A stretch of 64,000 nt of DNA from an uncultured Bacteroidales bacterium. GTDB taxonomy: Bacteria; Bacteroidota; Bacteroidia; Bacteroidales; F082. The notes under the pieces were generated by a model. That model saw only the letters and a list, made by a program, of their open reading frames with translations, was not told the origin of the DNA and ran no database searches. The first letter of the stretch is position 1. Each line of letters starts with the position of its first letter. The position numbers were made by a program, and so were the translations under genes. Location of the stretch: the NCBI GenBank assembly GCA_947302205.1, contig CAMYVD010000004.1, positions 4,218-68,217 on the forward strand, given 5' to 3'. This document shows positions 26,282 through 35,481 of this stretch, piece by piece.

Positions 26282-27156
26282 TCTTTGTTATTGCGTGTGA
26301 AGAAATCCGCGAAAAGCTCTTCCATGTTTTTCTTCGTGTAGAAATGCGGTTTCGGCGCTGCCTTGTGCATGAGGCCTTTCAAAGTGCTGACAATCTTTTC
26401 CATATGTTGATCAAAGCTACTGATGCTGAATACGTCATGGCCATTTTCCTTTAACAGCTGCTGTGCCTCTTGGTTTTGCATGATGGCGCTGCCAAAGGCT
26501 TGGCAATCATAGATATGCGGATTTTGGAACCAGTTGTCGATGTTCATGTTGAGCTGAATTGCATTGACGCCATCCGCTTTCACGTCCAGATCCAAAGGAA
26601 GTTCCACGGTGAAATCATTCTGATAGAAAACGGTTAAGTCTTCATTTTGGCCGATGCCGAGATGGATGTTCATCGGGGCGAGGTCGCCGTTTTCATCAAG
26701 GTATTTGCCGTTGAGTTTCATGTAATGGTAACCGCCGCCAAGGGGTTCTGGCCAAAACATGTCGCGCTCAGGCGGGTTGGAGAATAGCCCGGTGACGTTG
26801 TCATCTTGGTCAAGCCCGAAGGTGAAACGCATGGAGGTGTATCTCTGACAAGGAATCGAGGAGGTTGAAAGTACCTGCCTCTCAGGAATATTGGTGTCGA
26901 TGTAATAGATCTTTCCCAGAGCGTATTCATCGCCTTGTTCGCCAATAATCGTGAGGTTTGAAATGAACCACTGTATTTCAGTGATCAGGAATTGGTTCCC
27001 TGCCGCGTTGGTATAGCAAAGGCTGTCCGTGATCAGGTCATGACCATTGACAGTGTAGTTGACATGGATTTCGGTGTCGCCGTAGTCCACGGGCTTGTCG
27101 CAGGCCACGTTCATCATCGAAACCAAGAGAAGCAGCAGAAAGGCAATCTTTTTCAT
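26278..27156 (-). CDS. mbnP: MbnP-family periplasmic (copper-binding) protein
   Basis: I chose the start at MKKIAFLLLLLVSMMNVAC. The size and its position directly upstream of a CCP-like di-haem gene match the MbnP/MbnH pair. Confidence 0.5.
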   Translation of the reverse strand: MKKIAFLLLLLVSMMNVACDKPVDYGDTEIHVNYTVNGHDLITDSLCYTNAAGNQFLITEIQWFISNLTIIGEQGDEYALGKIYYIDTNIPERQVLSTSSIPCQRYTSMRFTFGLDQDDNVTGLFSNPPERDMFWPEPLGGGYHYMKLNGKYLDENGDLAPMNIHLGIGQNEDLTVFYQNDFTVELPLDLDVKADGVNAIQLNMNIDNWFQNPHIYDCQAFGSAIMQNQEAQQLLKENGHDVFSISSFDQHMEKIVSTLKGLMHKAAPKPHFYTKKNMEELFADFFTRNNKE

Positions 27157-27203
27157 CTTCGTCAGAATTCGACTGCAATGATACAAAAATCTTACCAAAA
27201 TCG

Positions 27204-27211
27204 TATCTTTG
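27204..27211 (+). promoter_or_regulatory. -7 box TATCTTTG
   Basis: Matches TAnnTTTG, 21 nt upstream of the ATG at 27232. Confidence 0.4.
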
Positions 27212-27231
27212 CAGTCTAAAACAATTGAATT

Positions 27232-28329
27232 ATGGCAGAATTTAAGATAGGCGACAGGGTAAACTTCCTGAGCAGCACGGGTGGCGGCAAAGTCACCAAG
27301 ATCATTGACTCACGCATGGTGATGGTGGAAGTGGAGGATGGCTTCGAATTACCGACTTTGATCAGTGATTTGGTGCCTGACTTCCGCAACCAACCTGCCC
27401 GACAGCAGCAAATCGTGGATACGGTGCAGAAAGAGATTCAGGAGAAGGAACTTGTGCAGCAACAACAGGTGGAGGACGCCCGTCACGGAGGTTTGCGCCG
27501 TTTTGCCAAGGAAGCGGAAAAAGAAGGCGTGTACCTGGCTTTCGTGCCTCACGAGCAGCAGTGGCTTCTGACCGGTGCCATGGATGTGGTGTTGGTGAAC
27601 CATACCCCATACGAGATGCTGTACTCTTTTACCATCAAGGAGGAGGATAAGTTCGTCAATGTGGATTACGGGCAAGCCGACAAGCATGAAAAGGTGGTGG
27701 TGGAGACCATCTCACGTGATGATTTGGAGTACTGGTGCAATGGTATTGTGCAGGCCATTTTCACTACGGAAAGTAGCGACACGGTGTTGCTCCCGCTGAA
27801 CGCTCCATTCTCGCTCCGTACCAACCGTTTCTTCAAGGAAGGCAGCTACCTGATGTCAGGCCTGCTGGGTGAAAAAGCGGTGATGATCAGCCTTTCTGAC
27901 TTGGTTTCGCTCAAGAGTGGCGATGCGGATCTGATGAAAATCGTCAAGGAAGGTGTAGGATCGCAGGCACCTAAGAAAGACTTGATTAAGCATGAAGCTC
28001 CCATCGACAAGCATCGGACGGGCCAAGGCGAGGCCACGGTGGATTTGCATATCGGCGAGTTGGTCGAAAATATTGCCGGGCTTTCGAGTCACGACATGTT
28101 CAACATCCAGATGGATTATTTCAGGAAGATGCTCGATAGCGCCATTGCTGCCGAATACACCAAGGTGACGTTTATCCATGGTGCGGGCAACGGTGTGTTG
28201 AAGAACGCCATTATTGAGGAATTGAAGAAATATGGAAATACAAAAAGTAAAATGGCGTCCATTGCCAAGTTTGGCGTTGGGGCTATTGATGTTGTCATTC
28301 GCGGTGACGTCATGTCGTCGAACCAATGA
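27232..28329 (+). CDS. Smr domain protein (DUF2027 plus Smr)
   Basis: C-terminal Smr domain ..VDLHIGELVE..VTFIHGAGNGVLKNAIIEELKKY..GVGAIDVVI. Confidence 0.7.
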   Translation: MAEFKIGDRVNFLSSTGGGKVTKIIDSRMVMVEVEDGFELPTLISDLVPDFRNQPARQQQIVDTVQKEIQEKELVQQQQVEDARHGGLRRFAKEAEKEGVYLAFVPHEQQWLLTGAMDVVLVNHTPYEMLYSFTIKEEDKFVNVDYGQADKHEKVVVETISRDDLEYWCNGIVQAIFTTESSDTVLLPLNAPFSLRTNRFFKEGSYLMSGLLGEKAVMISLSDLVSLKSGDADLMKIVKEGVGSQAPKKDLIKHEAPIDKHRTGQGEATVDLHIGELVENIAGLSSHDMFNIQMDYFRKMLDSAIAAEYTKVTFIHGAGNGVLKNAIIEELKKYGNTKSKMASIAKFGVGAIDVVIRGDVMSSNQ

Positions 28330-28624
28330 TTCCTTGATCGGCCGTTGGACGGTGGAAAAGGTCAATGTGGAGTTTAATGAGCAGATTGCCACTCCGGAGA
28401 TGGTGCGGCAATACGGCGAAATGGAGAAAGGCAACGTCATTGAAATCAGTAAGGATTCCGTGCTGACGTTCATCTCTGAAGGTGACACCCTAAAGGGGAG
28501 ATGTTCTCTAAGAGGTTTTCAGTTGTCATGTGACGGTAACCCTTTTGGCCGGTACGAAAATGGCCATATCGAGACCGAGGCGGTCACACCGATTGGGGTG
28601 ATAAAAGTGTTGTATAAGAAGTGA
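28232..28624 (+). CDS. Lipocalin-like small lipoprotein
   Basis: Signal plus lipobox (LLMLSFAVTSC), then GRWTVEKV... Its 5' end overlaps the Smr gene by 98 nt in another frame. Confidence 0.5.
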   Translation: MEIQKVKWRPLPSLALGLLMLSFAVTSCRRTNDSLIGRWTVEKVNVEFNEQIATPEMVRQYGEMEKGNVIEISKDSVLTFISEGDTLKGRCSLRGFQLSCDGNPFGRYENGHIETEAVTPIGVIKVLYKK

Positions 28625-28693
28625 ACCCGCAGGGAATCGAACCCTGATCGAAGGAACCGGAATCCTTTATTCTATCCATTAAACTACGGGTCC
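28622..28693 (-). tRNA. tRNA-Arg (anticodon CCG)
   Basis: Cloverleaf folded by hand: acceptor GGACCCG/CGGGTTC, anticodon loop TTCCGGT, T-arm CAGGG-TTCGATT-CCCTG. 72 nt. CCA is not encoded. Confidence 0.9.
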
Positions 28694-28710
28694 AAGCGCT
28701 AAAGGCGCTG

Positions 28711-28718
28711 CAAAGATA
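28711..28718 (-). promoter_or_regulatory. -7 box TATCTTTG upstream of tRNA-Arg
   Basis: The reverse complement of caaagata matches TAnnTTTG. It lies 17 nt upstream of the tRNA 5' end. Confidence 0.45.
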
Positions 28719-28749
28719 GGAAAAACTTTCCGTTCTCTGTTTTCCGTTT

Positions 28750-30150
28750 TCAACTTTGTTTCAAGTGCTCCACAAATTCGTCGATGCGTTGCATCTCGCT
28801 GGCGATGGCGATCTTTTGCGGGCAGTGTGACTCGCACTGATGGCATCCGATGCAGTGGCTGGCCTGGCGTTCATAAGGAACCTTCTCGTCATAGCTCTTG
28901 AGGAAAGCTCGGCGATTGCGGCGGTACTCCACGGCTTCAGGATTGCCAGCGGGCATGTTGCCCTCGGTGATGCAGTCGTTGTAATGCGCAAAGATGGCAG
29001 GGATGTTCAGGCCGTAAGGGCAGGGCATGCAATAGTTGCAGGCAGTGCAGGGCACGGTCTTCAGCTTCACGAACTCCTCGGCGATTTTCATCAGGAGCTC
29101 GTTTTCCTCCTCGGTGATGGGACGCAATGGCGAGTAGGTGGCCACATTCTCCATCAGATGCTCCATATAGGTCATGCCGCTCAAAACCACCAGCACGCCT
29201 TCGGGAGTGCCGGCGAAACGGAAAGCCCAACGTGCCACGGGGGTCTCGGGCTCACGCTCCTTCATCTGCCGGACGATGTAGTCGGGCTGTTTGGCGAGAC
29301 GGCCTCCGAGCAGCGGCTCCATGATGACAGCGGGGATGCCACGGCGATGCAACTCGTTGTAGAGATAAACGGCGTTGACGTTGTCCGAATCGATGACATG
29401 GGCGTAGTTCCAGTCAGCGTAATTCAGCTGAATCTGCACGAAGTCCCAGTGGTAGCGACCCTCGTCGTGCCAGCGCAGCATGGTGTCGAACACCTCAACG
29501 TCGCCATGGAAGGAGAACCCTAAGTTGCGGATGCGACCGGCTTGCTTTTGCTCCACCAACCAGTCAAGGATGCCGTTGTCGATGAAGCGGGCATTGAACA
29601 TCTCCATGCAACCCAACTCGTCGTTTGATCCGCCGATGCTGTGCAGCAGCAGGTAGTCGACGTAGTCGGTGCGCAGATACTTCAAAGAGTTCTCGAACAT
29701 GGCTTTGGAGGCCTCGGCACCCCAGGTGGAAGGGCTGAAGTTCGACAATTTGGTGGCGAGGTAATAGCTGTTGCGTGGGTGCCGTGAGAGGGCGATACCG
29801 GTGGCTTCTTCCGAATGGCCTCGGGTGTAGACCGGAGAGGTGTCGAAGTAGTTGACACCGTGCTCGAGGGCGTAGTCGATCTCCTCGTTCACCATCTCTT
29901 GGTCAATCTGGGCATTGGGATTGTCGCGGAAGGTAGCTCCGTCAACCATCGGGAGGCGCATCATGCCATAGCCTAGCAACGACACTTTATCGCCGCTGTT
30001 GGGGTTGATGCGGTAGGTCATCTCTCCTTGGCCGTCGATGACGTCGGTAGGAGTGACCCCAGGGTTGTTATTTGATTTACAGGCGGAGAGCACCACCGAG
30101 GTTGCCACGGCGGCACCGCCCATCTTCTTTATGAAATCTCTTCTTTTCAT
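28750..30150 (-). CDS. Tat-exported aldo/keto reductase lipoprotein with a C-terminal 4Fe-4S dicluster domain
   Basis: Twin-arginine signal MKRRDFIKKMGGAAVATSVVLSAC. AKR tetrad context FDTSPVY / ATK / LLHS. C-terminal CTACNYCMPCP and CIGCHQCESHCP. Confidence 0.75.
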   Translation of the reverse strand: MKRRDFIKKMGGAAVATSVVLSACKSNNNPGVTPTDVIDGQGEMTYRINPNSGDKVSLLGYGMMRLPMVDGATFRDNPNAQIDQEMVNEEIDYALEHGVNYFDTSPVYTRGHSEEATGIALSRHPRNSYYLATKLSNFSPSTWGAEASKAMFENSLKYLRTDYVDYLLLHSIGGSNDELGCMEMFNARFIDNGILDWLVEQKQAGRIRNLGFSFHGDVEVFDTMLRWHDEGRYHWDFVQIQLNYADWNYAHVIDSDNVNAVYLYNELHRRGIPAVIMEPLLGGRLAKQPDYIVRQMKEREPETPVARWAFRFAGTPEGVLVVLSGMTYMEHLMENVATYSPLRPITEEENELLMKIAEEFVKLKTVPCTACNYCMPCPYGLNIPAIFAHYNDCITEGNMPAGNPEAVEYRRNRRAFLKSYDEKVPYERQASHCIGCHQCESHCPQKIAIASEMQRIDEFVEHLKQS

Positions 30151-30179
30151 TCTGACTCCTGACTTCTAAATTCTGATTT

Positions 30180-31562
30180 TTAATCCTTTTGGTGAACGGT
30201 GTTTCCTTCGACGTAGATGGCGCTGAATGGCCTTGAGGGACATAGATTCTCACAGGCACCGCAGCCGATGCATTTGTTTTCGTTGACGGCAGGCACCATG
30301 ACCGTCTGGCCATTGTGCTGGTATTCCACCATCTGGATGGCTCCAGTGGGGCAGTGGCGGGCGCAGTTGCCGCAGCTGACACCGTCAGTGAGTACCACGC
30401 AGTTGTCTTTCACCCAAACGGCGTGGCCTGCATGGATGGCAGTCTTCTCCTCCTTGGTGATCGGCTTGATGGCACCAGCAGGGCAGACTTGGCTGCAGTG
30501 GGTACATTCAGGACGGCAGTAGCCTACCTCGAACGACATGGTGGGCTGCATGAAACGGTTCAGGTCGGTTGAGGGACGCAACACATGGTTGGGGCAAGCC
30601 GAAATGCAGAGTTGGCAAGCAGTGCAGTGTTGCTGGATGTGACGTGCTGAGATGGATCCGGGAGGTGTCAATGGGGTTTCACGCTTGGGAGCCTGTTTTT
30701 CGGTGATGACCGCCAGTCCGCCGTCCACCTTCATCTGGGTTTGGGCCATGGCTGCAGTGCCAGTGGCTATGGCTGCACCGACCAGGAACGAGCGACGGCC
30801 TTGGTCAGGCTCGCTTGATGCGTCATGGGCCGGTTTCGTGGCTGAATATTTCAACGCGTCAAACTTGCACTGTGCCGTGCAATCACCACAAACCACGCAA
30901 CGGGAATAATCCACGGTGCCGTTCTTGACATCGATGGCGCGAGCCTTGCAGTTCTTCTCGCAGAGACCGCAGTGCTTGCATTTGTTCTCGTCAATACGCA
31001 CTCTAAAGAGAGAGAAACGGGAGAAGAAGCTGAGGATGGTTCCTACGGGACAAATCGAGTTGCAGTAGGCGCGGCCATAAAGGAAAGCCAAAACGCCGAG
31101 CACCAACATCACCACCCAAGCGATGATGGAGACGGTGACATTGCGCATATAAAAACTGGTGACGATACGGCCGTAGGTGCTGTATGGGGCAAGCAAGGTG
31201 GTCACTGGCGCGAAACCAATGATGAGGCAAATGATGAACAGTGCCAAAACGCTGTAACGGAGCCATTTGTGCTCTTTTACATAGTTAAAGCGGTTTTTCT
31301 TGAACTTGCCGCCAAGCCAGCTGTAAATGTCTTGCATGATGCCCAATGGGCAGATCACGCTGCAGTAGATCCTGCCAAAGAGCAGGGTGAGGATGAGCAG
31401 GGCGGCCACCACGATGAAGTTCATGGCCAACAGTGCCGGTAGGAACTGGATCTTGGCTGCCCATCCAATCCATCGGTCAATGCCGTAGCCGACCCCCACA
31501 AAGAGCAGGGTGATCACCAATATCATGATGACGGCCAGTGTGATTCGGAGCTTTTTTAACAT
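30180..31562 (-). CDS. Membrane polyferredoxin, apparent NapH-like plus NapG-like fusion
   Basis: N-terminal TM helices with two CxxxCP motifs (CSVICPLG and CNSICPVG). Two CxxCxxCxxxC clusters, an internal GRRSFLVGAAIATGTAAMAQ segment, then four more Cys clusters. Confidence 0.7.
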   Translation of the reverse strand: MLKKLRITLAVIMILVITLLFVGVGYGIDRWIGWAAKIQFLPALLAMNFIVVAALLILTLLFGRIYCSVICPLGIMQDIYSWLGGKFKKNRFNYVKEHKWLRYSVLALFIICLIIGFAPVTTLLAPYSTYGRIVTSFYMRNVTVSIIAWVVMLVLGVLAFLYGRAYCNSICPVGTILSFFSRFSLFRVRIDENKCKHCGLCEKNCKARAIDVKNGTVDYSRCVVCGDCTAQCKFDALKYSATKPAHDASSEPDQGRRSFLVGAAIATGTAAMAQTQMKVDGGLAVITEKQAPKRETPLTPPGSISARHIQQHCTACQLCISACPNHVLRPSTDLNRFMQPTMSFEVGYCRPECTHCSQVCPAGAIKPITKEEKTAIHAGHAVWVKDNCVVLTDGVSCGNCARHCPTGAIQMVEYQHNGQTVMVPAVNENKCIGCGACENLCPSRPFSAIYVEGNTVHQKD

Positions 31563-31597
31563 GAGTTAGCAGTTTGAAGTTGGGAGTTGGGAGTTGA

Positions 31598-32974
31598 TTA
31601 GTTAATTAGGAGTTTTTTGGAAATGGTTTTGGAGCCTTGTTTTATAACGGCGATGTATAAACCGGGCTTCAATGATTGGGTGTTGACACGTTGTCCGGTG
31701 ATGGTGTAGAGGGTGGTTGTTGACGGGTCAAGGTTGTTGATGTCAATGTCGATGAAGCTTTCTTCCACGCCTTCGCTTCCAACATAAGGATAGAAAGTGA
31801 CGAGGCCGAGGCTCGGGTCGTCCACTTGATGGTAGATTTGTGATTCTATGAAATCGTAAATCGTTGTTCCCCAATAATTTCCAACAGCAGTGATGTTACA
31901 AGCGGAGTTGTTGTACAAGTCGTATACCGATCCGCCGTTCATGTTGTCACGGATTACGTTGCGCCCCCAATCGTCTTCAGTTCCCAAGTCGATGTCGTGG
32001 AGGTTGATGGCGGTGATGCCCCATAAATTGCCTGTAATCACATTATCGCGCAAGATGGCTTTATTGTTTGTGGTGGAACCATAGATGGAGATGCCGCTAC
32101 CGCCGTTCATCGGGTTGTCCTCGTTGTTATTGTCGATGAACTGGTTTCCAATAATGACCGACGAGATGTTGGCACCCTGTTGGTTGTAGCCGTAACGACC
32201 GTCTCTGATTTCATTGTCCTTCAAGAGCACTTTGGTGGTCCCGACGCCCATGAGATCGGCTATGGAGATGCCTCCGGTATGGTATTGGGCCCAACGGTCG
32301 TAGATGTCGTTGCCGACAATGCGGATGGTGTCGTCACTACCGGGACCGAGGTTGATTTGAGGGCTGTTGAAGCCATTCACGTTGGCATCGAAAGTGTTGT
32401 TCAGGATTTGCGGAGAGCTTTGGCCATTGGCAGGAGAACTGATGGCGGCACCTTCATTGTCTTGGAAATAACAGTTTTTGATGATAGGGTCGCAGTTGAA
32501 GACATCGATGACCGCGTTGCAGTAATCGCGGGTGAAATACAAGAACTTCACGTCGTCGAAAGTCACGTCGGATTCGATGACCTTAATGCCGGCGCCATCA
32601 GAAAAATACAACCATTTGAGGTTGCAGCCGGTAGCGTTCTCGAACCTCATGCTGAAATGCTCCGTTTGGTTCAAGCCAAAAAGGCCTACTCGGTCGATGG
32701 TATTGGTGCTGACCATGGAGCCGTTGATGGAGATGAGTATTTCAGCGGCATAAATACGCGTCACTTGATTGTCAATCTTCAATACGTCGTTGGCGGAAAT
32801 GGTGAGGTCTTGGTGGATGGTGAAAATCGTTCCATCGTTGGTGACCACGCCTTCGGTGACATCGACGAGATCGGGTAGGGTGTAGGTGGTGCCGTCGCCG
32901 GGACTGACCCATTGGGCCTTTAATGAAGTTGCTAAACTGATGATTAACAGTAGGATGGGTAAAATTCTTTTCAT
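31598..32974 (-). CDS. Secreted right-handed parallel beta-helix repeat protein with a probable T9SS C-terminal domain
   Basis: Signal peptide. Repeated ..N.I..N.. beta-helix rungs. C-terminus ..LYTITGQRVNTQSLKPGLYIAVIKQGSKTISKKLLIN. Confidence 0.55.
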   Translation of the reverse strand: MKRILPILLLIISLATSLKAQWVSPGDGTTYTLPDLVDVTEGVVTNDGTIFTIHQDLTISANDVLKIDNQVTRIYAAEILISINGSMVSTNTIDRVGLFGLNQTEHFSMRFENATGCNLKWLYFSDGAGIKVIESDVTFDDVKFLYFTRDYCNAVIDVFNCDPIIKNCYFQDNEGAAISSPANGQSSPQILNNTFDANVNGFNSPQINLGPGSDDTIRIVGNDIYDRWAQYHTGGISIADLMGVGTTKVLLKDNEIRDGRYGYNQQGANISSVIIGNQFIDNNNEDNPMNGGSGISIYGSTTNNKAILRDNVITGNLWGITAINLHDIDLGTEDDWGRNVIRDNMNGGSVYDLYNNSACNITAVGNYWGTTIYDFIESQIYHQVDDPSLGLVTFYPYVGSEGVEESFIDIDINNLDPSTTTLYTITGQRVNTQSLKPGLYIAVIKQGSKTISKKLLIN

Positions 32975-33024
32975 GCTTGAATCGGTTTTGCTTTTTTAAA
33001 AGCCAAAGATACATGTTTTTTCCC

Positions 33025-33032
33025 TATTTTTG
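33025..33032 (+). promoter_or_regulatory. -7 box TATTTTTG
   Basis: Matches TAnnTTTG, 20 nt upstream of the ATG at 33052. Confidence 0.4.
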
Positions 33033-33051
33033 CAAATAAAGAAAAAGCAAT

Positions 33052-34212
33052 ATGTCACGAATTCTAATCATTGACGACCAGGATCCCATCCGCCGCGTGC
33101 TGCGCGACATCTTGGAGAATGAGAAATATCAGGTGGATGACGCTGCCAATGGCCCTGCTGCCCTTCAAATGCTGAAAGAGCAAGAGTACGATGCCATTTT
33201 GTGCGACATCAAGATGCCTGACATGGACGGCATCGAGGTGCTTGAACAGGTGAAAGCCACGAACGACACGCCTGTCATCATGATTTCAGGTCACGGCACG
33301 ATCGATACGGCTGTGGATGCCATCAAGAAAGGCGCCTTCGATTTCATCCAGAAGCCGCCCGATTTGAACCGTTTGCTCATCACCGTGCGCAATGCCCTCG
33401 ACAAGCAGAGTCTCAGCACGGAGAACAAGGCCTTGAAGAAAGCCGTCAGCAAGCAGAATGAGATGGTGGGCACCTCGGCACCCATGATGGAGGTACGCGA
33501 CATGATTGAGAAGGTGGCACCTACGAACGCCCGTGTGCTCATCACCGGAGAAAACGGCACCGGCAAGGAGTTGGTGGCCCGTCAGCTCCATGAACTCAGC
33601 CCACGCCGCTATGGTCCTTTCATCGAGGTCAACTGTGCAGCCATCCCTGCAGAACTTATTGAAAGCCAATTGTTCGGCCATGAAAAGGGTTCGTTCACCT
33701 CAGCCATCAAGCAAAAGAAAGGCGACTTCGAACTGGCCAATGGAGGTACCTTGTTCCTTGACGAAATCGGTGACATGAGTTTGGCAGCCCAAGCCAAGGT
33801 GTTGCGTGCCTTGCAAGAAAACAAGATCATCCGTGTAGGTGGCGAGAAAGAGATACCGGTGGACGTGCGCATCGTTGCAGCCACCAATAAAGACCTGCGC
33901 AAGATGATTGAGGAGAACGCTTTCCGCGAGGACTTGTACCATCGTTTGAGCGTCATCGTGGTGCATGTGCCGCCGTTGAGAGACCGTAAGGATGACATTC
34001 CGTTGCTGGTGGGTAGTTTTGTGGAGACCATCGCCCAGAATATGGGCAAGGCTGCTCCAGCCTTTACCGACGAGGCTTTGGAGGAACTCAAGAATTACCA
34101 GTGGACGGGCAACATCCGTGAACTTCACAACATCGTTGAGCGCTTGGTGATCCTTTGCGGAAACACCATCACGAAGGAAGATGTCATCCAGTTCGGGAAC
34201 CCGCTGAAATAA
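33052..34212 (+). CDS. Sigma-54-dependent response regulator (REC plus AAA+), lacking a C-terminal HTH domain
   Basis: REC domain (ILIIDDQ.., ..CDIKMPDMDG). AAA+ motifs GENGTGKE, GHEKGSFTSA (GAFTGA-like) and FLDEIG. The protein ends right after the AAA+ lid, at 386 aa. Confidence 0.8.
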   Translation: MSRILIIDDQDPIRRVLRDILENEKYQVDDAANGPAALQMLKEQEYDAILCDIKMPDMDGIEVLEQVKATNDTPVIMISGHGTIDTAVDAIKKGAFDFIQKPPDLNRLLITVRNALDKQSLSTENKALKKAVSKQNEMVGTSAPMMEVRDMIEKVAPTNARVLITGENGTGKELVARQLHELSPRRYGPFIEVNCAAIPAELIESQLFGHEKGSFTSAIKQKKGDFELANGGTLFLDEIGDMSLAAQAKVLRALQENKIIRVGGEKEIPVDVRIVAATNKDLRKMIEENAFREDLYHRLSVIVVHVPPLRDRKDDIPLLVGSFVETIAQNMGKAAPAFTDEALEELKNYQWTGNIRELHNIVERLVILCGNTITKEDVIQFGNPLK

Positions 34213-34242
34213 AAAACACTTGCGGTGGAACGATTTTTGCTG

Positions 34243-34250
34243 TATTTTTG
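34243..34250 (+). promoter_or_regulatory. -7 box TATTTTTG upstream of ssrA
   Basis: Matches TAnnTTTG and ends 10 nt before the tmRNA 5' end. Confidence 0.5.
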
Positions 34251-34260
34251 CAGCGCTTTC

Positions 34261-34658
34261 GGGGGTGTATGGTTTTGACAGCAAGATGAATTGTCACGGA
34301 AGCATGCCGAGCCTTGCAGCGAAGCTCGTAAATCTTAACTGCAAAAAAGTAATTGGCGAAAATAACTACGCTTTCGCTGCCTGATCGAAGTACAGTAGAT
34401 CACTGGCTTAATCCGCTCACAAGGTGGGTGGACGAAACATCCCGCAGGTGGAGATGCCTGATTCCGGCCTGAGCACGGGGTGCTAATCAATTTCGGGATC
34501 GCCCGTTCGGAGCTTCGACGCACGGGTTAAATTTAGGAGATAAGGTCAGGTTTAGGGCGTTCGCTCCCTTGCCTGGCACGAAAACCAACAGCGGAATAAG
34601 CATGTAGAAACCTTGGGAGTTCCTTGTTTGGACGAGGGTTCGACTCCCTTCACCTCCA
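34261..34658 (+). ncRNA. ssrA: tmRNA (SsrA)
   Basis: The 5' GGGGGTG pairs with the 3' CACCTCC, including a G3:U pair. T-arm GGGTTCGACTCCC. Tag ORF GGC GAA AAT AAC TAC GCT TTC GCT GCC TGA at 34355-34384 gives (A)GENNYAFAA. Confidence 0.9.
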
Positions 34659-34670
34659 CAAATTGAACGC

Positions 34671-34705
34671 AAAACCCGTTGATTTTCAGCGGGTTTTTGA
34701 TTTTC
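34671..34705 (+). terminator. Rho-independent terminator after ssrA
   Basis: Stem aaaacccg/cgggtttt with loop ttgattttcag, followed by a T-rich tail. Confidence 0.7.
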
Positions 34706-34761
34706 TTTTGTCCATTAGACCAAAATTGATTATTTTTGCCAAAATAACTAATAATAGTAAT

Positions 34762-35481
34762 ATGATGAATTCCATGAAGTTAATGGCAGCCATAACCCTG
34801 ACCGTGGCGATGATGTTTGTTGCAGGATGTAAACCAGAAGAAACTCCTAATACTAGTGATGGCACATACAACGGCCATGAATATGTGGATTTAGGCCTGC
34901 CGAGCGGTACCCTGTGGGCGACTTGCAACGTTGGAGCGGATACTCCAGAAGGAACGGGCGACTTTTTCGCTTGGGGCGAGACCACGCCGAAGACCATCTA
35001 CAATTGGAGCACTTACCAGTACTGCAACGGCGGTGAGGGACTGAATACGCTCACCAAGTACTGCAATGATTTCAATTTCGGTTACAACGGCTTCACCGAC
35101 ACTTTAACCATGTTGCAGATGATGGACGATGATGCCGCCACGGCCAACTGGGGCGACGGTTGGTGCATGCCCACAACCGAACAATGGAGGGAACTCTACC
35201 TGAACACCACTCACACATGGATGGAGCAGAACGGAGTGAACGGCGGGTTGTTCACCGCTTCTAACGGCCACAGTCTCTTCTTGCCCGCTGTCGGCTACCG
35301 TTGGGACGACGTTCACAACAGTGCCGGCACCATCGGTTACTACTGGTCAAGCTCGTTAGATACCATCAGCCCCTACAATGCATGGAACTTCAACTTTAGT
35401 TCGGGCGGTTGCTACGTGTTCGACTACCCTCGGAGCGACGGTCGATCTGTCCGTCCGGTGCGCTCTTCGTCTCAGGACTAA
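34762..35481 (+). CDS. Lipoprotein, FISUMP/DUF1566-like domain
   Basis: I chose the start at MMNSMKLMAAITLTVAMMFVAGC, preceded by a -7 box TATTTTTG at 34731-34738. Contains ..GTLWATCNVGA..FFAWGE..GWCMPTTEQWRELY..LFLPAVGYR..GYYWSSS..SVRPVR. Confidence 0.5.
   Translation: MMNSMKLMAAITLTVAMMFVAGCKPEETPNTSDGTYNGHEYVDLGLPSGTLWATCNVGADTPEGTGDFFAWGETTPKTIYNWSTYQYCNGGEGLNTLTKYCNDFNFGYNGFTDTLTMLQMMDDDAATANWGDGWCMPTTEQWRELYLNTTHTWMEQNGVNGGLFTASNGHSLFLPAVGYRWDDVHNSAGTIGYYWSSSLDTISPYNAWNFNFSSGGCYVFDYPRSDGRSVRPVRSSSQD

Follow-up and report, generated by a model that had tools for sequence, protein, structure and literature searches.

A 64,000-nt stretch of contig CAMYVD010000004.1 (GenBank assembly GCA_947302205.1), which comes from an uncultured Bacteroidales bacterium of the F082 lineage and is referred to here as the window, contains two adjacent genes encoding a polytopic polyferredoxin (PFD) and an exported aldo-keto reductase (AKR) that carries an iron-sulfur (Fe-S) domain of its own. 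We found that these two genes, and not the three-gene set in which they lie, are the conserved unit, and we consider it probable, judging from the features of the predicted proteins, that together they work as one functional unit, a periplasm-facing oxidoreductase that is wired to the membrane and linked to menaquinone. AKRs are textbook cytoplasmic enzymes that use NAD(P)H, and the periplasm has no pool of NAD(P)H. The locus occupies positions 28750-32974 on the minus strand (all coordinates are those of the window unless a locus is named), where the listing of open reading frames gives three co-directional genes that encode, from 5' to 3', a beta-helix protein of 458 amino acids (aa), the PFD of 460 aa and the AKR of 466 aa; 35 nt separate the beta-helix gene from the PFD gene and 29 nt separate the PFD gene from the AKR gene (Table 1). 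A preliminary description of this DNA, made from the letters alone, had taken the three genes as one unit. When the open reading frames were rechecked and profile and motif scans were run, its gene positions, its gaps and the motifs that it quoted were all where it had claimed.

The pairing of the PFD and AKR genes extends well beyond the window. Full-length matches to the AKR were found at 17 loci among 40 related genomes, down to 50% identity, and in 17 of 17 the PFD gene was located directly upstream of the AKR gene. When one genome of each species was scanned, at least 595 matching stretches were returned, of which the best 80 named loci were used (these include Prevotella, Phocaeicola vulgatus, Alistipes, Paludibacteraceae, Muribaculaceae and Candidatus Limimorpha), and here the PFD gene adjoined the AKR gene in 74 of the 76 named Bacteroidales loci that had enough upstream sequence. 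In a sample of 301 Bacteroidales genomes, 45 (about 15%) carried the AKR, and all 45 carried a PFD as well; no match to the AKR was found in approximately 393 genomes from other orders of the phylum. Moreover, ten loci outside the phylum were sampled (Kiritimatiellia and Proteobacteria, going by the names of the records), and at each of them a NapH/NapG-like partner was present next to an exported Fe-S AKR. This partner was a single fused protein of 467-578 aa at some of the ten loci; at the others it was divided between a NapH-like gene and, in some cases, a NapG-like gene. The co-conservation predicted in the preliminary description was therefore found to be tight for the PFD and AKR genes.

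The same was not found for the beta-helix gene. In five AKR-carrying congeners (G007, G010, G012, G016 and G020) this gene and the AKR gene are on separate contigs, in five others (G008, G013, G014, G017 and G019) it was not found, and in G022 the beta-helix gene is present and the AKR is absent from the search matches. The trio is kept in one subclade only (L013-L015, L017, L018, L031 and L113-L117), and because the members of this subclade have the whole neighbourhood in common, the synteny of the trio there is no evidence of coupling. The preliminary description had itself named a lack of co-conservation as a refuting condition, and on this count the distribution of the beta-helix gene among the congeners led us to reject a three-gene unit as originally proposed. 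Because the beta-helix gene separates from the pair, or is absent, while the pair holds, the conserved unit is the PFD-AKR pair, and the beta-helix gene is a lineage-specific neighbour that lies outside the conserved module. (Note that at one locus of the same subclade, L115:7877-9277 on a metagenome contig, two genes of 196 and 243 aa are called where the AKR is expected, perhaps because this copy is broken or because the contig is misassembled.)

The AKR begins with MKRRDFIKKMGGAAVATSVVLSAC and was matched by the Pfam profile Aldo_ket_red (PF00248) over residues 59-355 with a score of 114 bits against a cut-off of 24, and by Fer4_9 over residues 368-446. In an alignment of 80 homologues, R3, R4 and F6 were invariant and C24 was present in at least 90%. 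The catalytic tetrad and all eight cysteine ligands of the Fe-S domain were likewise invariant, as were the MEPLLGG loop and the LSGM...L..N motif of the cofactor loop. Conservation of the twin arginines, the cysteine ligands and the tetrad among the homologues means that these motifs are more than chance. Thus, the view of this protein as a lipoprotein of the twin-arginine translocation (Tat) pathway with two 4Fe-4S motifs of its own has held up, the signal, the lipobox and both cysteine clusters being present and conserved. (Surface-exported lipoproteins of Bacteroidota carry an acidic motif; none is visible after Cys24 of the AKR.) The structure model of the AKR, a confident one with a predicted local distance difference test score (pLDDT) of 85.8, consists of an ordinary AKR barrel and a helical Fe-S tail, and its matches in a fold search were AKR11C1, AKR14A1 and L-galactose dehydrogenase, with TM scores of about 0.75-0.82 when normalised to the target. 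By sequence, too, the best matches in the PDB were L-galactose dehydrogenases. Neither the sequence search nor the fold search returned a solved structure of an Fe-S AKR, or any solved structure that spans the tail, and a search of the literature for exported, Tat-exported or Fe-S AKRs found no relevant paper. In the same genus there is a second clade of these AKRs (L023-L027), 50-57% identical, in which S-R-K-D-F-L-K stands in place of the twin arginine and in which the lipobox and the adjacent PFD are kept.

Polytopic polyferredoxins are a described class of NapH-NapG fusions (Tooke et al., eLife 2017, PMC5449189) in which the fifth transmembrane segment is weakly hydrophobic and has a conserved twin arginine before it and positive charges after it. 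For one such protein, from the delta proteobacterium MLMS-1 (Q1NSB0), dual insertion by the Sec and Tat pathways was shown experimentally, and the paper mentions neither an AKR nor any other partner enzyme (PMC5449189). The predicted features of the PFD of the window match this dual Sec/Tat class. Four strong transmembrane helices (residues 7-25, 44-62, 105-123 and 142-160) have hydropathy peaks of 2.6-2.9, the Fer4_5 profile was found twice, and CxxxCP motifs at C67/C71 and C167/C171 are accompanied by clusters at residues 195-205 and 222-232 that are predicted to lie on the cytoplasmic side; the N-terminus reads MLKKLR, and the charge bias of the loops agrees with a cytoplasmic location of the CxxxCP motifs and of the first two clusters. 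In 68 homologues, R257 was present in all 68, position 256 was arginine in 60 and lysine in 8, and F259 was present in 63, so that a conserved (R/K)-R-x-F-L precedes residues 260-274, a segment whose hydropathy is under the threshold passed by the four other helices. All cysteine ligands of the PFD were invariant, or nearly so, in the same homologues. Consistent with what the preliminary description had claimed of the middle gene, namely a fusion of NapH and NapG with an internal Tat-like signal, we found two Fer4_5 domains, six cysteine clusters and QGRRSFLVGAAIATGTAAMAQ at the expected position, and the hydropathy profile together with the homologue alignment placed a weakly hydrophobic fifth transmembrane segment behind the twin arginine. 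NapH and NapG, both scoring below their cut-offs, were the best-matching named NCBIfam families for the PFD.

When likened to the MLMS-1 protein by class features, rather than by direct sequence comparison, the PFD of the window has in common with it a NapH-like N-terminal part with four transmembrane helices, Fe-S motifs predicted to be cytoplasmic, a twin arginine with a weak fifth transmembrane segment, and a NapG-like C-terminal domain with four clusters; it differs in having one lysine rather than a cluster of positive charges after the fifth segment. With the NapGH quinol dehydrogenase of periplasmic nitrate reductase systems (E. coli, Wolinella) the PFD shares both domain types and the predicted topology. 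In the PFD, however, the two parts are fused and score far below the cut-offs for NapH and NapG, the partner is an Fe-S AKR, and neither NapA nor NosZ, the usual company of such proteins, was found in a search of the whole of the window's genome (88.6% complete), as had been noted earlier for the window itself.

A link with Tat is also apparent from gene order. The tatC gene adjoins the pair in 33 of the 80 loci, and at one of these (L034) the order is tatA-tatC-PFD-AKR with junctions of 1-4 nt. The genome to which the window belongs has two tatC genes, both on other contigs. Among the genomes of the genus, TatC and the AKR occur together in 15 and are both lacking in 7, whereas TatC occurs alone in 2 and the AKR alone in 1, this last genome being 62% complete; because the genomes are related and not independent, these counts describe a pattern and do not amount to a test. 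The window's genome also encodes MenA and the flavoprotein of fumarate reductase/succinate dehydrogenase.

The genes next to the pair differ between lineages. In Prevotella and Bacteroides the pair is accompanied by a DUF1893 gene (22 of 80 loci) and by a gene for a 170-aa membrane protein (19 of 80 loci); these two genes, and a neighbouring gene for a TonB receptor, were not found in the window's genome. At L134:10001-13328, on a metagenome contig, a gene for a TonB-type receptor is followed by genes for an Fe-S AKR, a NapH-like protein and a NapG-like ferredoxin fused to DUF1893 (TM1506), with a DUF362 gene and a ferredoxin gene located 4 kb upstream. To judge from the fusion, DUF1893 may be part of a redox chain rather than of an uptake route. 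At L121:3984-8105 two Fe-S AKR genes in tandem precede separate NapG-like and NapH-like genes, with GH43, GH92, glucuronoyl esterase and GFO/IDH/MocA genes in the neighbourhood. At L118:640-5826 the gene for a glycyl-radical enzyme (PFL-like, 801 aa) overlaps the start of the gene for an exported Fe-S AKR, and NapG-like and NapH-like genes come next. Finally, at L039:3822-4445, in Phocaeicola vulgatus, the PFD-AKR pair is directly preceded by genes for a short-chain dehydrogenase and for a Flavodoxin_4 protein that has a signal peptide.

Given the gene anatomy, the conservation of motifs, the pairing and the linkage to tat that are described above, we infer a topology, a mode of cofactor loading, an electron path, a direction and a class of substrate for the system. 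Sec would insert the first four helices of the PFD, and the internal twin-arginine segment would pass the folded NapG-like domain, with its four clusters, to Tat. The AKR would fold in the cytoplasm and take up there its two [4Fe-4S] clusters together with a permanently bound hydride cofactor of the pyridine type; Tat would then export the folded protein, leaving it held on the periplasmic side by a lipid anchor at Cys24. Electrons would pass between the tetrad site of the AKR and its two clusters, between these and the four NapG-like clusters, and between the latter and a quinone site in the NapH-like part, most favourably when the substrate is oxidised and its electrons enter the quinone pool and, from there, fumarate respiration. 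The potential of menaquinone is about -74 mV, and ordinary alcohol, aldehyde and aldose couples have potentials of about -200 mV or lower. Because the potential of menaquinone is above that of the carbonyl/alcohol couples, substrate oxidation is the favourable direction, and for quinol to drive a reduction the acceptor would have to be unusually oxidising. The enzyme is thus more likely to oxidise its substrate than to reduce ordinary carbonyls. A sugar-type or sugar-derived substrate is weakly suggested by analogy, since L-galactose dehydrogenases are the top PDB matches of the AKR and since the L121 locus has a carbohydrate neighbourhood.

Several observations weigh against a membrane-wired oxidoreductase of this kind. 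At two loci (L098 and L103) the AKR is present and no PFD adjoins it. No flavin-binding domain that could convert a two-electron hydride transfer into one-electron Fe-S steps was detected. Following the fifth segment of the PFD, where the family consensus is K-K-K, the protein of the window has Q-M-K, with one lysine only. The NCBIfam scores are far below their cut-offs, at 92-95 bits against 213-234 for NapH (residues 54-240) and 81 bits against 269 for NapG (residues 250-442). Furthermore, the proposed direction and substrate lean on thermodynamics and on a few neighbourhoods from other phyla, and binding of quinone by the NapH-like domain would follow by analogy with the NapGH literature.

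The cofactor site of the AKR bears on each of the alternatives that we considered. In this AKR family the canonical S-N (GVSNE in Tas) is replaced by S-F/Y-H, which in the window is S213-F214-H215 by alignment with Tas; the asparagine that binds the nicotinamide carboxamide is lost, and the other cofactor-loop motifs are retained. H215 itself is invariant (80 of 80 homologues) and is kept in most of the exported relatives from other phyla. An AKR that binds nickel-pincer mononucleotide (NPMN), NphT (PDB 9YEB), has His144 as the nickel ligand and Lys200 as the cofactor tether (Semersky et al., Nat Chem 2026, PMC13524815). With HMMER, LGFSFHG of the window aligned with IGITGHG of 9YEB such that S213-F214-H215 fell on T142-G143-H144, and H215 therefore on His144 (the chain index of 9YEB is offset by 3 from the numbering of the paper, and NphT could be aligned over residues 27-151 only). 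It is conceivable, if rather unlikely, that the AKR of the window uses NPMN or NPAD instead of NAD(P)H, held by His215 without a covalent tether, loaded before Tat export and working outside the cytoplasm. The nickel centre would then turn hydride chemistry into single electrons for the Fe-S chain and the quinone pool, and the cofactor or its precursor would be scavenged. Like NphT, the AKR has the barrel, an intact tetrad, S/T-x-H with its histidine on His144, and no canonical asparagine, and 40% of lar-linked AKRs have the histidine without the lysine (PMC13524815). Unlike NphT, which is cytoplasmic, has about 290 aa and is described in that paper with neither Fe-S domains nor export, it has a two-cluster tail, a Tat signal and a lipobox, and the position of Lys200, placed via an alignment with AKR11C1 only and hence a probable one, is occupied by an invariant glutamate, E278 of the MEP motif. 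Nor was LarC found in the window's genome. In the sample of 301 genomes, 47 had LarC and 45 had the AKR, and the overlap was 0 against a chance expectation of about 7 (hypergeometric P 2.4e-4, a value to be read knowing that related genomes are not independent), and at the ten loci from other phyla no lar gene was present within 9-10 kb of the AKR. The TonB receptor, DUF1893 and the 170-aa membrane protein, which might have provided a route of uptake for a scavenged cofactor, are those not found in the window's genome, and the fusion at L134 points away from uptake. What does connect a PFD with nickel-pincer cofactors is a second tier of PFDs in the order, 38-48% identical to that of the window, which are paired with a DUF362 protein that has a Tat signal (MERRDFLKK...) and which, in 14 of the 47 genomes that have LarC, are separated from larC by 5 kb or less. 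This module resembles the one in the window in having the same kind of membrane wire with a Tat-signal enzyme, and differs in that its partner is DUF362 and in that it is found beside nickel-pincer genes, whereas the AKR module was not found together with LarC in any of the 301 genomes sampled. A PFD-type wire is thus genetically tied to nickel-pincer synthesis with a DUF362 client and not with an AKR client. (At L125:6228-10798, L127:5384-10064 and L128:6689-12146, a DUF362-PFD pair is beside larC-larB, in some cases followed by larE. The sole DUF362 protein of the window's genome, at L131:1189-2298 on contig 29, has a Sec-type signal, a tail like those of the type IX secretion system (T9SS) and no Tat signal; as no PFD gene is nearby, we rejected it as a PFD-linked candidate.)

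Two further explanations dispense with nickel. The AKR might be a self-contained enzyme with tightly bound NAD(P) that passes hydride from one periplasmic substrate to another, in which case its Fe-S domain and the PFD would be needed only for redox poising, repair or regulation. The glucose-fructose oxidoreductase of Zymomonas is a precedent, being exported by Tat with tightly bound NAD(P). The AKR of the window retains the fold and the tetrad as well as most motifs of the cofactor loop, Tat export permits a cofactor to be loaded beforehand, and NphT disproportionates sugars without an external electron partner (PMC13524815). Nevertheless, replacement of S-N by S-F-H removes the canonical ligand of nicotinamide, and the near-obligate pairing of the AKR with a six-cluster membrane wire across phyla is hard to explain without net electron flow, which makes a self-contained enzyme distinctly improbable in our view. 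We regard as less probable still, and indeed as very unlikely, the model of the preliminary description, in which the trio is a menaquinol-driven periplasmic carbonyl reductase, the Fe-S domain of the AKR takes the place of nicotinamide and the beta-helix protein is an accessory like NosD. In its favour are the short gaps between the three genes, a single promoter-like box ahead of the beta-helix gene, the retention of the trio within one subclade and the loss of the asparagine that binds nicotinamide carboxamide. Against it, the invariant MEPLLGG and LSGM...L..N motifs and the complete tetrad argue for a bound hydride cofactor, menaquinol would be too weak a reductant for ordinary carbonyls, and the beta-helix gene has the scattered distribution among congeners described above, the subclade that keeps the trio being uninformative for synteny. 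Moreover, the fold of the beta-helix protein is closest to those of AlgG and polysaccharide lyases, and a T9SS tail would lead it out of the periplasm.

These considerations leave a membrane-wired, menaquinone-linked oxidoreductase made up of the PFD and the AKR as the reading that we prefer. The PFD class and the nickel-pincer AKRs have each been published; their combination has not. The module would imply undescribed periplasmic redox chemistry in abundant anaerobes of the gut and rumen, the Fe-S AKR would supply a physiological client for dual Sec/Tat polyferredoxins, and in this genus the module may be a main reason for retaining the Tat system. If oxidation of a sugar or an alcohol does reduce menaquinone by this path, it would be an unrecognised electron input to fumarate respiration. 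Were the cofactor of the nickel-pincer type instead, the discovery of NphT would take in respiration-linked enzymes outside the cytoplasm as well as cross-feeding of cofactors in the gut, and bacteria that are unable to make the cofactor would have a way of coupling hydride transfer to respiration with no flavin involved.

Table 1 Features of the locus, by position in the 64,000-nt window
Feature	Position	Strand	Basis or remarks
Tat-signal lipoprotein Fe-S AKR, 466 aa	28750..30150	-	Profile, alignment, structure model
Tat signal with lipobox, MKRRDFIKK...VLSAC, Cys24	30079..30150	-	Alignment of 80 homologues
AKR TIM barrel, residues 44-360, tetrad D103/Y108/K134/H170	29071..30021	-	Pfam, alignment, model
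S213-F214-H215, replacing the canonical S-N-x nicotinamide motif	29506..29514	-	Alignments
C-terminal dicluster ferredoxin-like domain, C368/371/374/377-P and C433/436/439/443-P	28810..29055	-	Pfam, alignment
PFD, 460 aa, NapH-like/NapG-like fusion	30180..31562	-	Profile, motif, homologue alignment
NapH-like part of PFD, residues 1-240	30843..31562	-	4 transmembrane helices, 2 CxxxCP, two 4Fe-4S motifs (predicted cytoplasmic side)
Internal twin-arginine signal and weakly hydrophobic transmembrane segment 5 of PFD, QGRRSFLVGAAIATGTAAMAQ	30741..30803	-	Homologue alignment, hydropathy
NapG-like part of PFD (predicted periplasmic), residues 282-460	30183..30719	-	Cys4 motifs 313-323, 349-360, 388-404, 431-441
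Beta-helix protein, 458 aa, DUF1565 family	31598..32974	-	Signal peptide 1-20; weak T9SS C-terminal domain about 418-458
Candidate -7 promoter box, Bacteroidetes-type, TATCTTTG	33004..33011	-	Motif; preceded at 22 nt by a TTG; beta-helix ATG follows after about 30 nt

The beta-helix protein was modelled as a right-handed beta-helix (pLDDT 79) with a C-terminal beta-sandwich at residues 420-457. It had no match in Pfam except for a weak T9SS tail, and in particular no match to NosD; many of its homologues, 68-97% identical, carry DUF1565, and PF18962 was found on a homologue. Accordingly, of the earlier claim that this is a secreted T9SS protein with a beta-helix, the signal peptide and the beta-helix stand, and the T9SS tail is below both curated cut-offs (19.3 bits against 23 in NCBIfam and 15.6 against 27 in Pfam). 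The top matches in the fold search were the alginate epimerase AlgG, PL6 and fucoidan lyases and phage tailspikes, and NosD appeared at ranks 29 and 47 with TM scores of 0.23-0.30. We read the protein, on the strength of this model, as a putative secreted or surface protein that binds or acts on carbohydrate. The parallel with NosD that had been drawn for it was rejected on the family and fold searches, and as T9SS cargo the protein would exit the periplasm, contrary to a role like that of NosD. The likeness to the NosD/NosGH set of clade II nosZ comes down to NapGH-like electron-transfer proteins encoded alongside a right-handed beta-helix protein. The differences are that the beta-helix protein here is of the DUF1565 family with a T9SS-type tail, that NosD is a low-ranking generic fold match and that NosZ was not found.

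TAnnTTTG is the -7 consensus of Bacteroidetes-type promoters. A motif scan of the minus strand from 33100 to the AKR stop found a sole match, at 33004-33011, and this lone promoter-like box ahead of the beta-helix gene fits a single transcript for all three genes here. The beta-helix gene is thus probably co-transcribed with the PFD-AKR pair in this genome. We entertained the idea that sigma-54 might control the locus via a divergent activator and rejected it: the two relevant intergenic regions have no -24/-12 match, such matches are no commoner across the window than expected by chance, and at L013 the beta-helix gene does not have the activator as its neighbour. A search for riboswitches and other known RNAs in positions 27000-35000 of the window and in 11 related loci returned tRNA and tmRNA genes only. 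One of these, a tRNA gene at 28622-28693 on the minus strand, is located directly 3' of the AKR gene, and no terminator-like hairpin was seen between the AKR stop and this tRNA gene. The following TAnnTTTG box (TATCTTTG), at 28711-28718 on the minus strand, is downstream of the AKR gene and 18 nt upstream of the tRNA.

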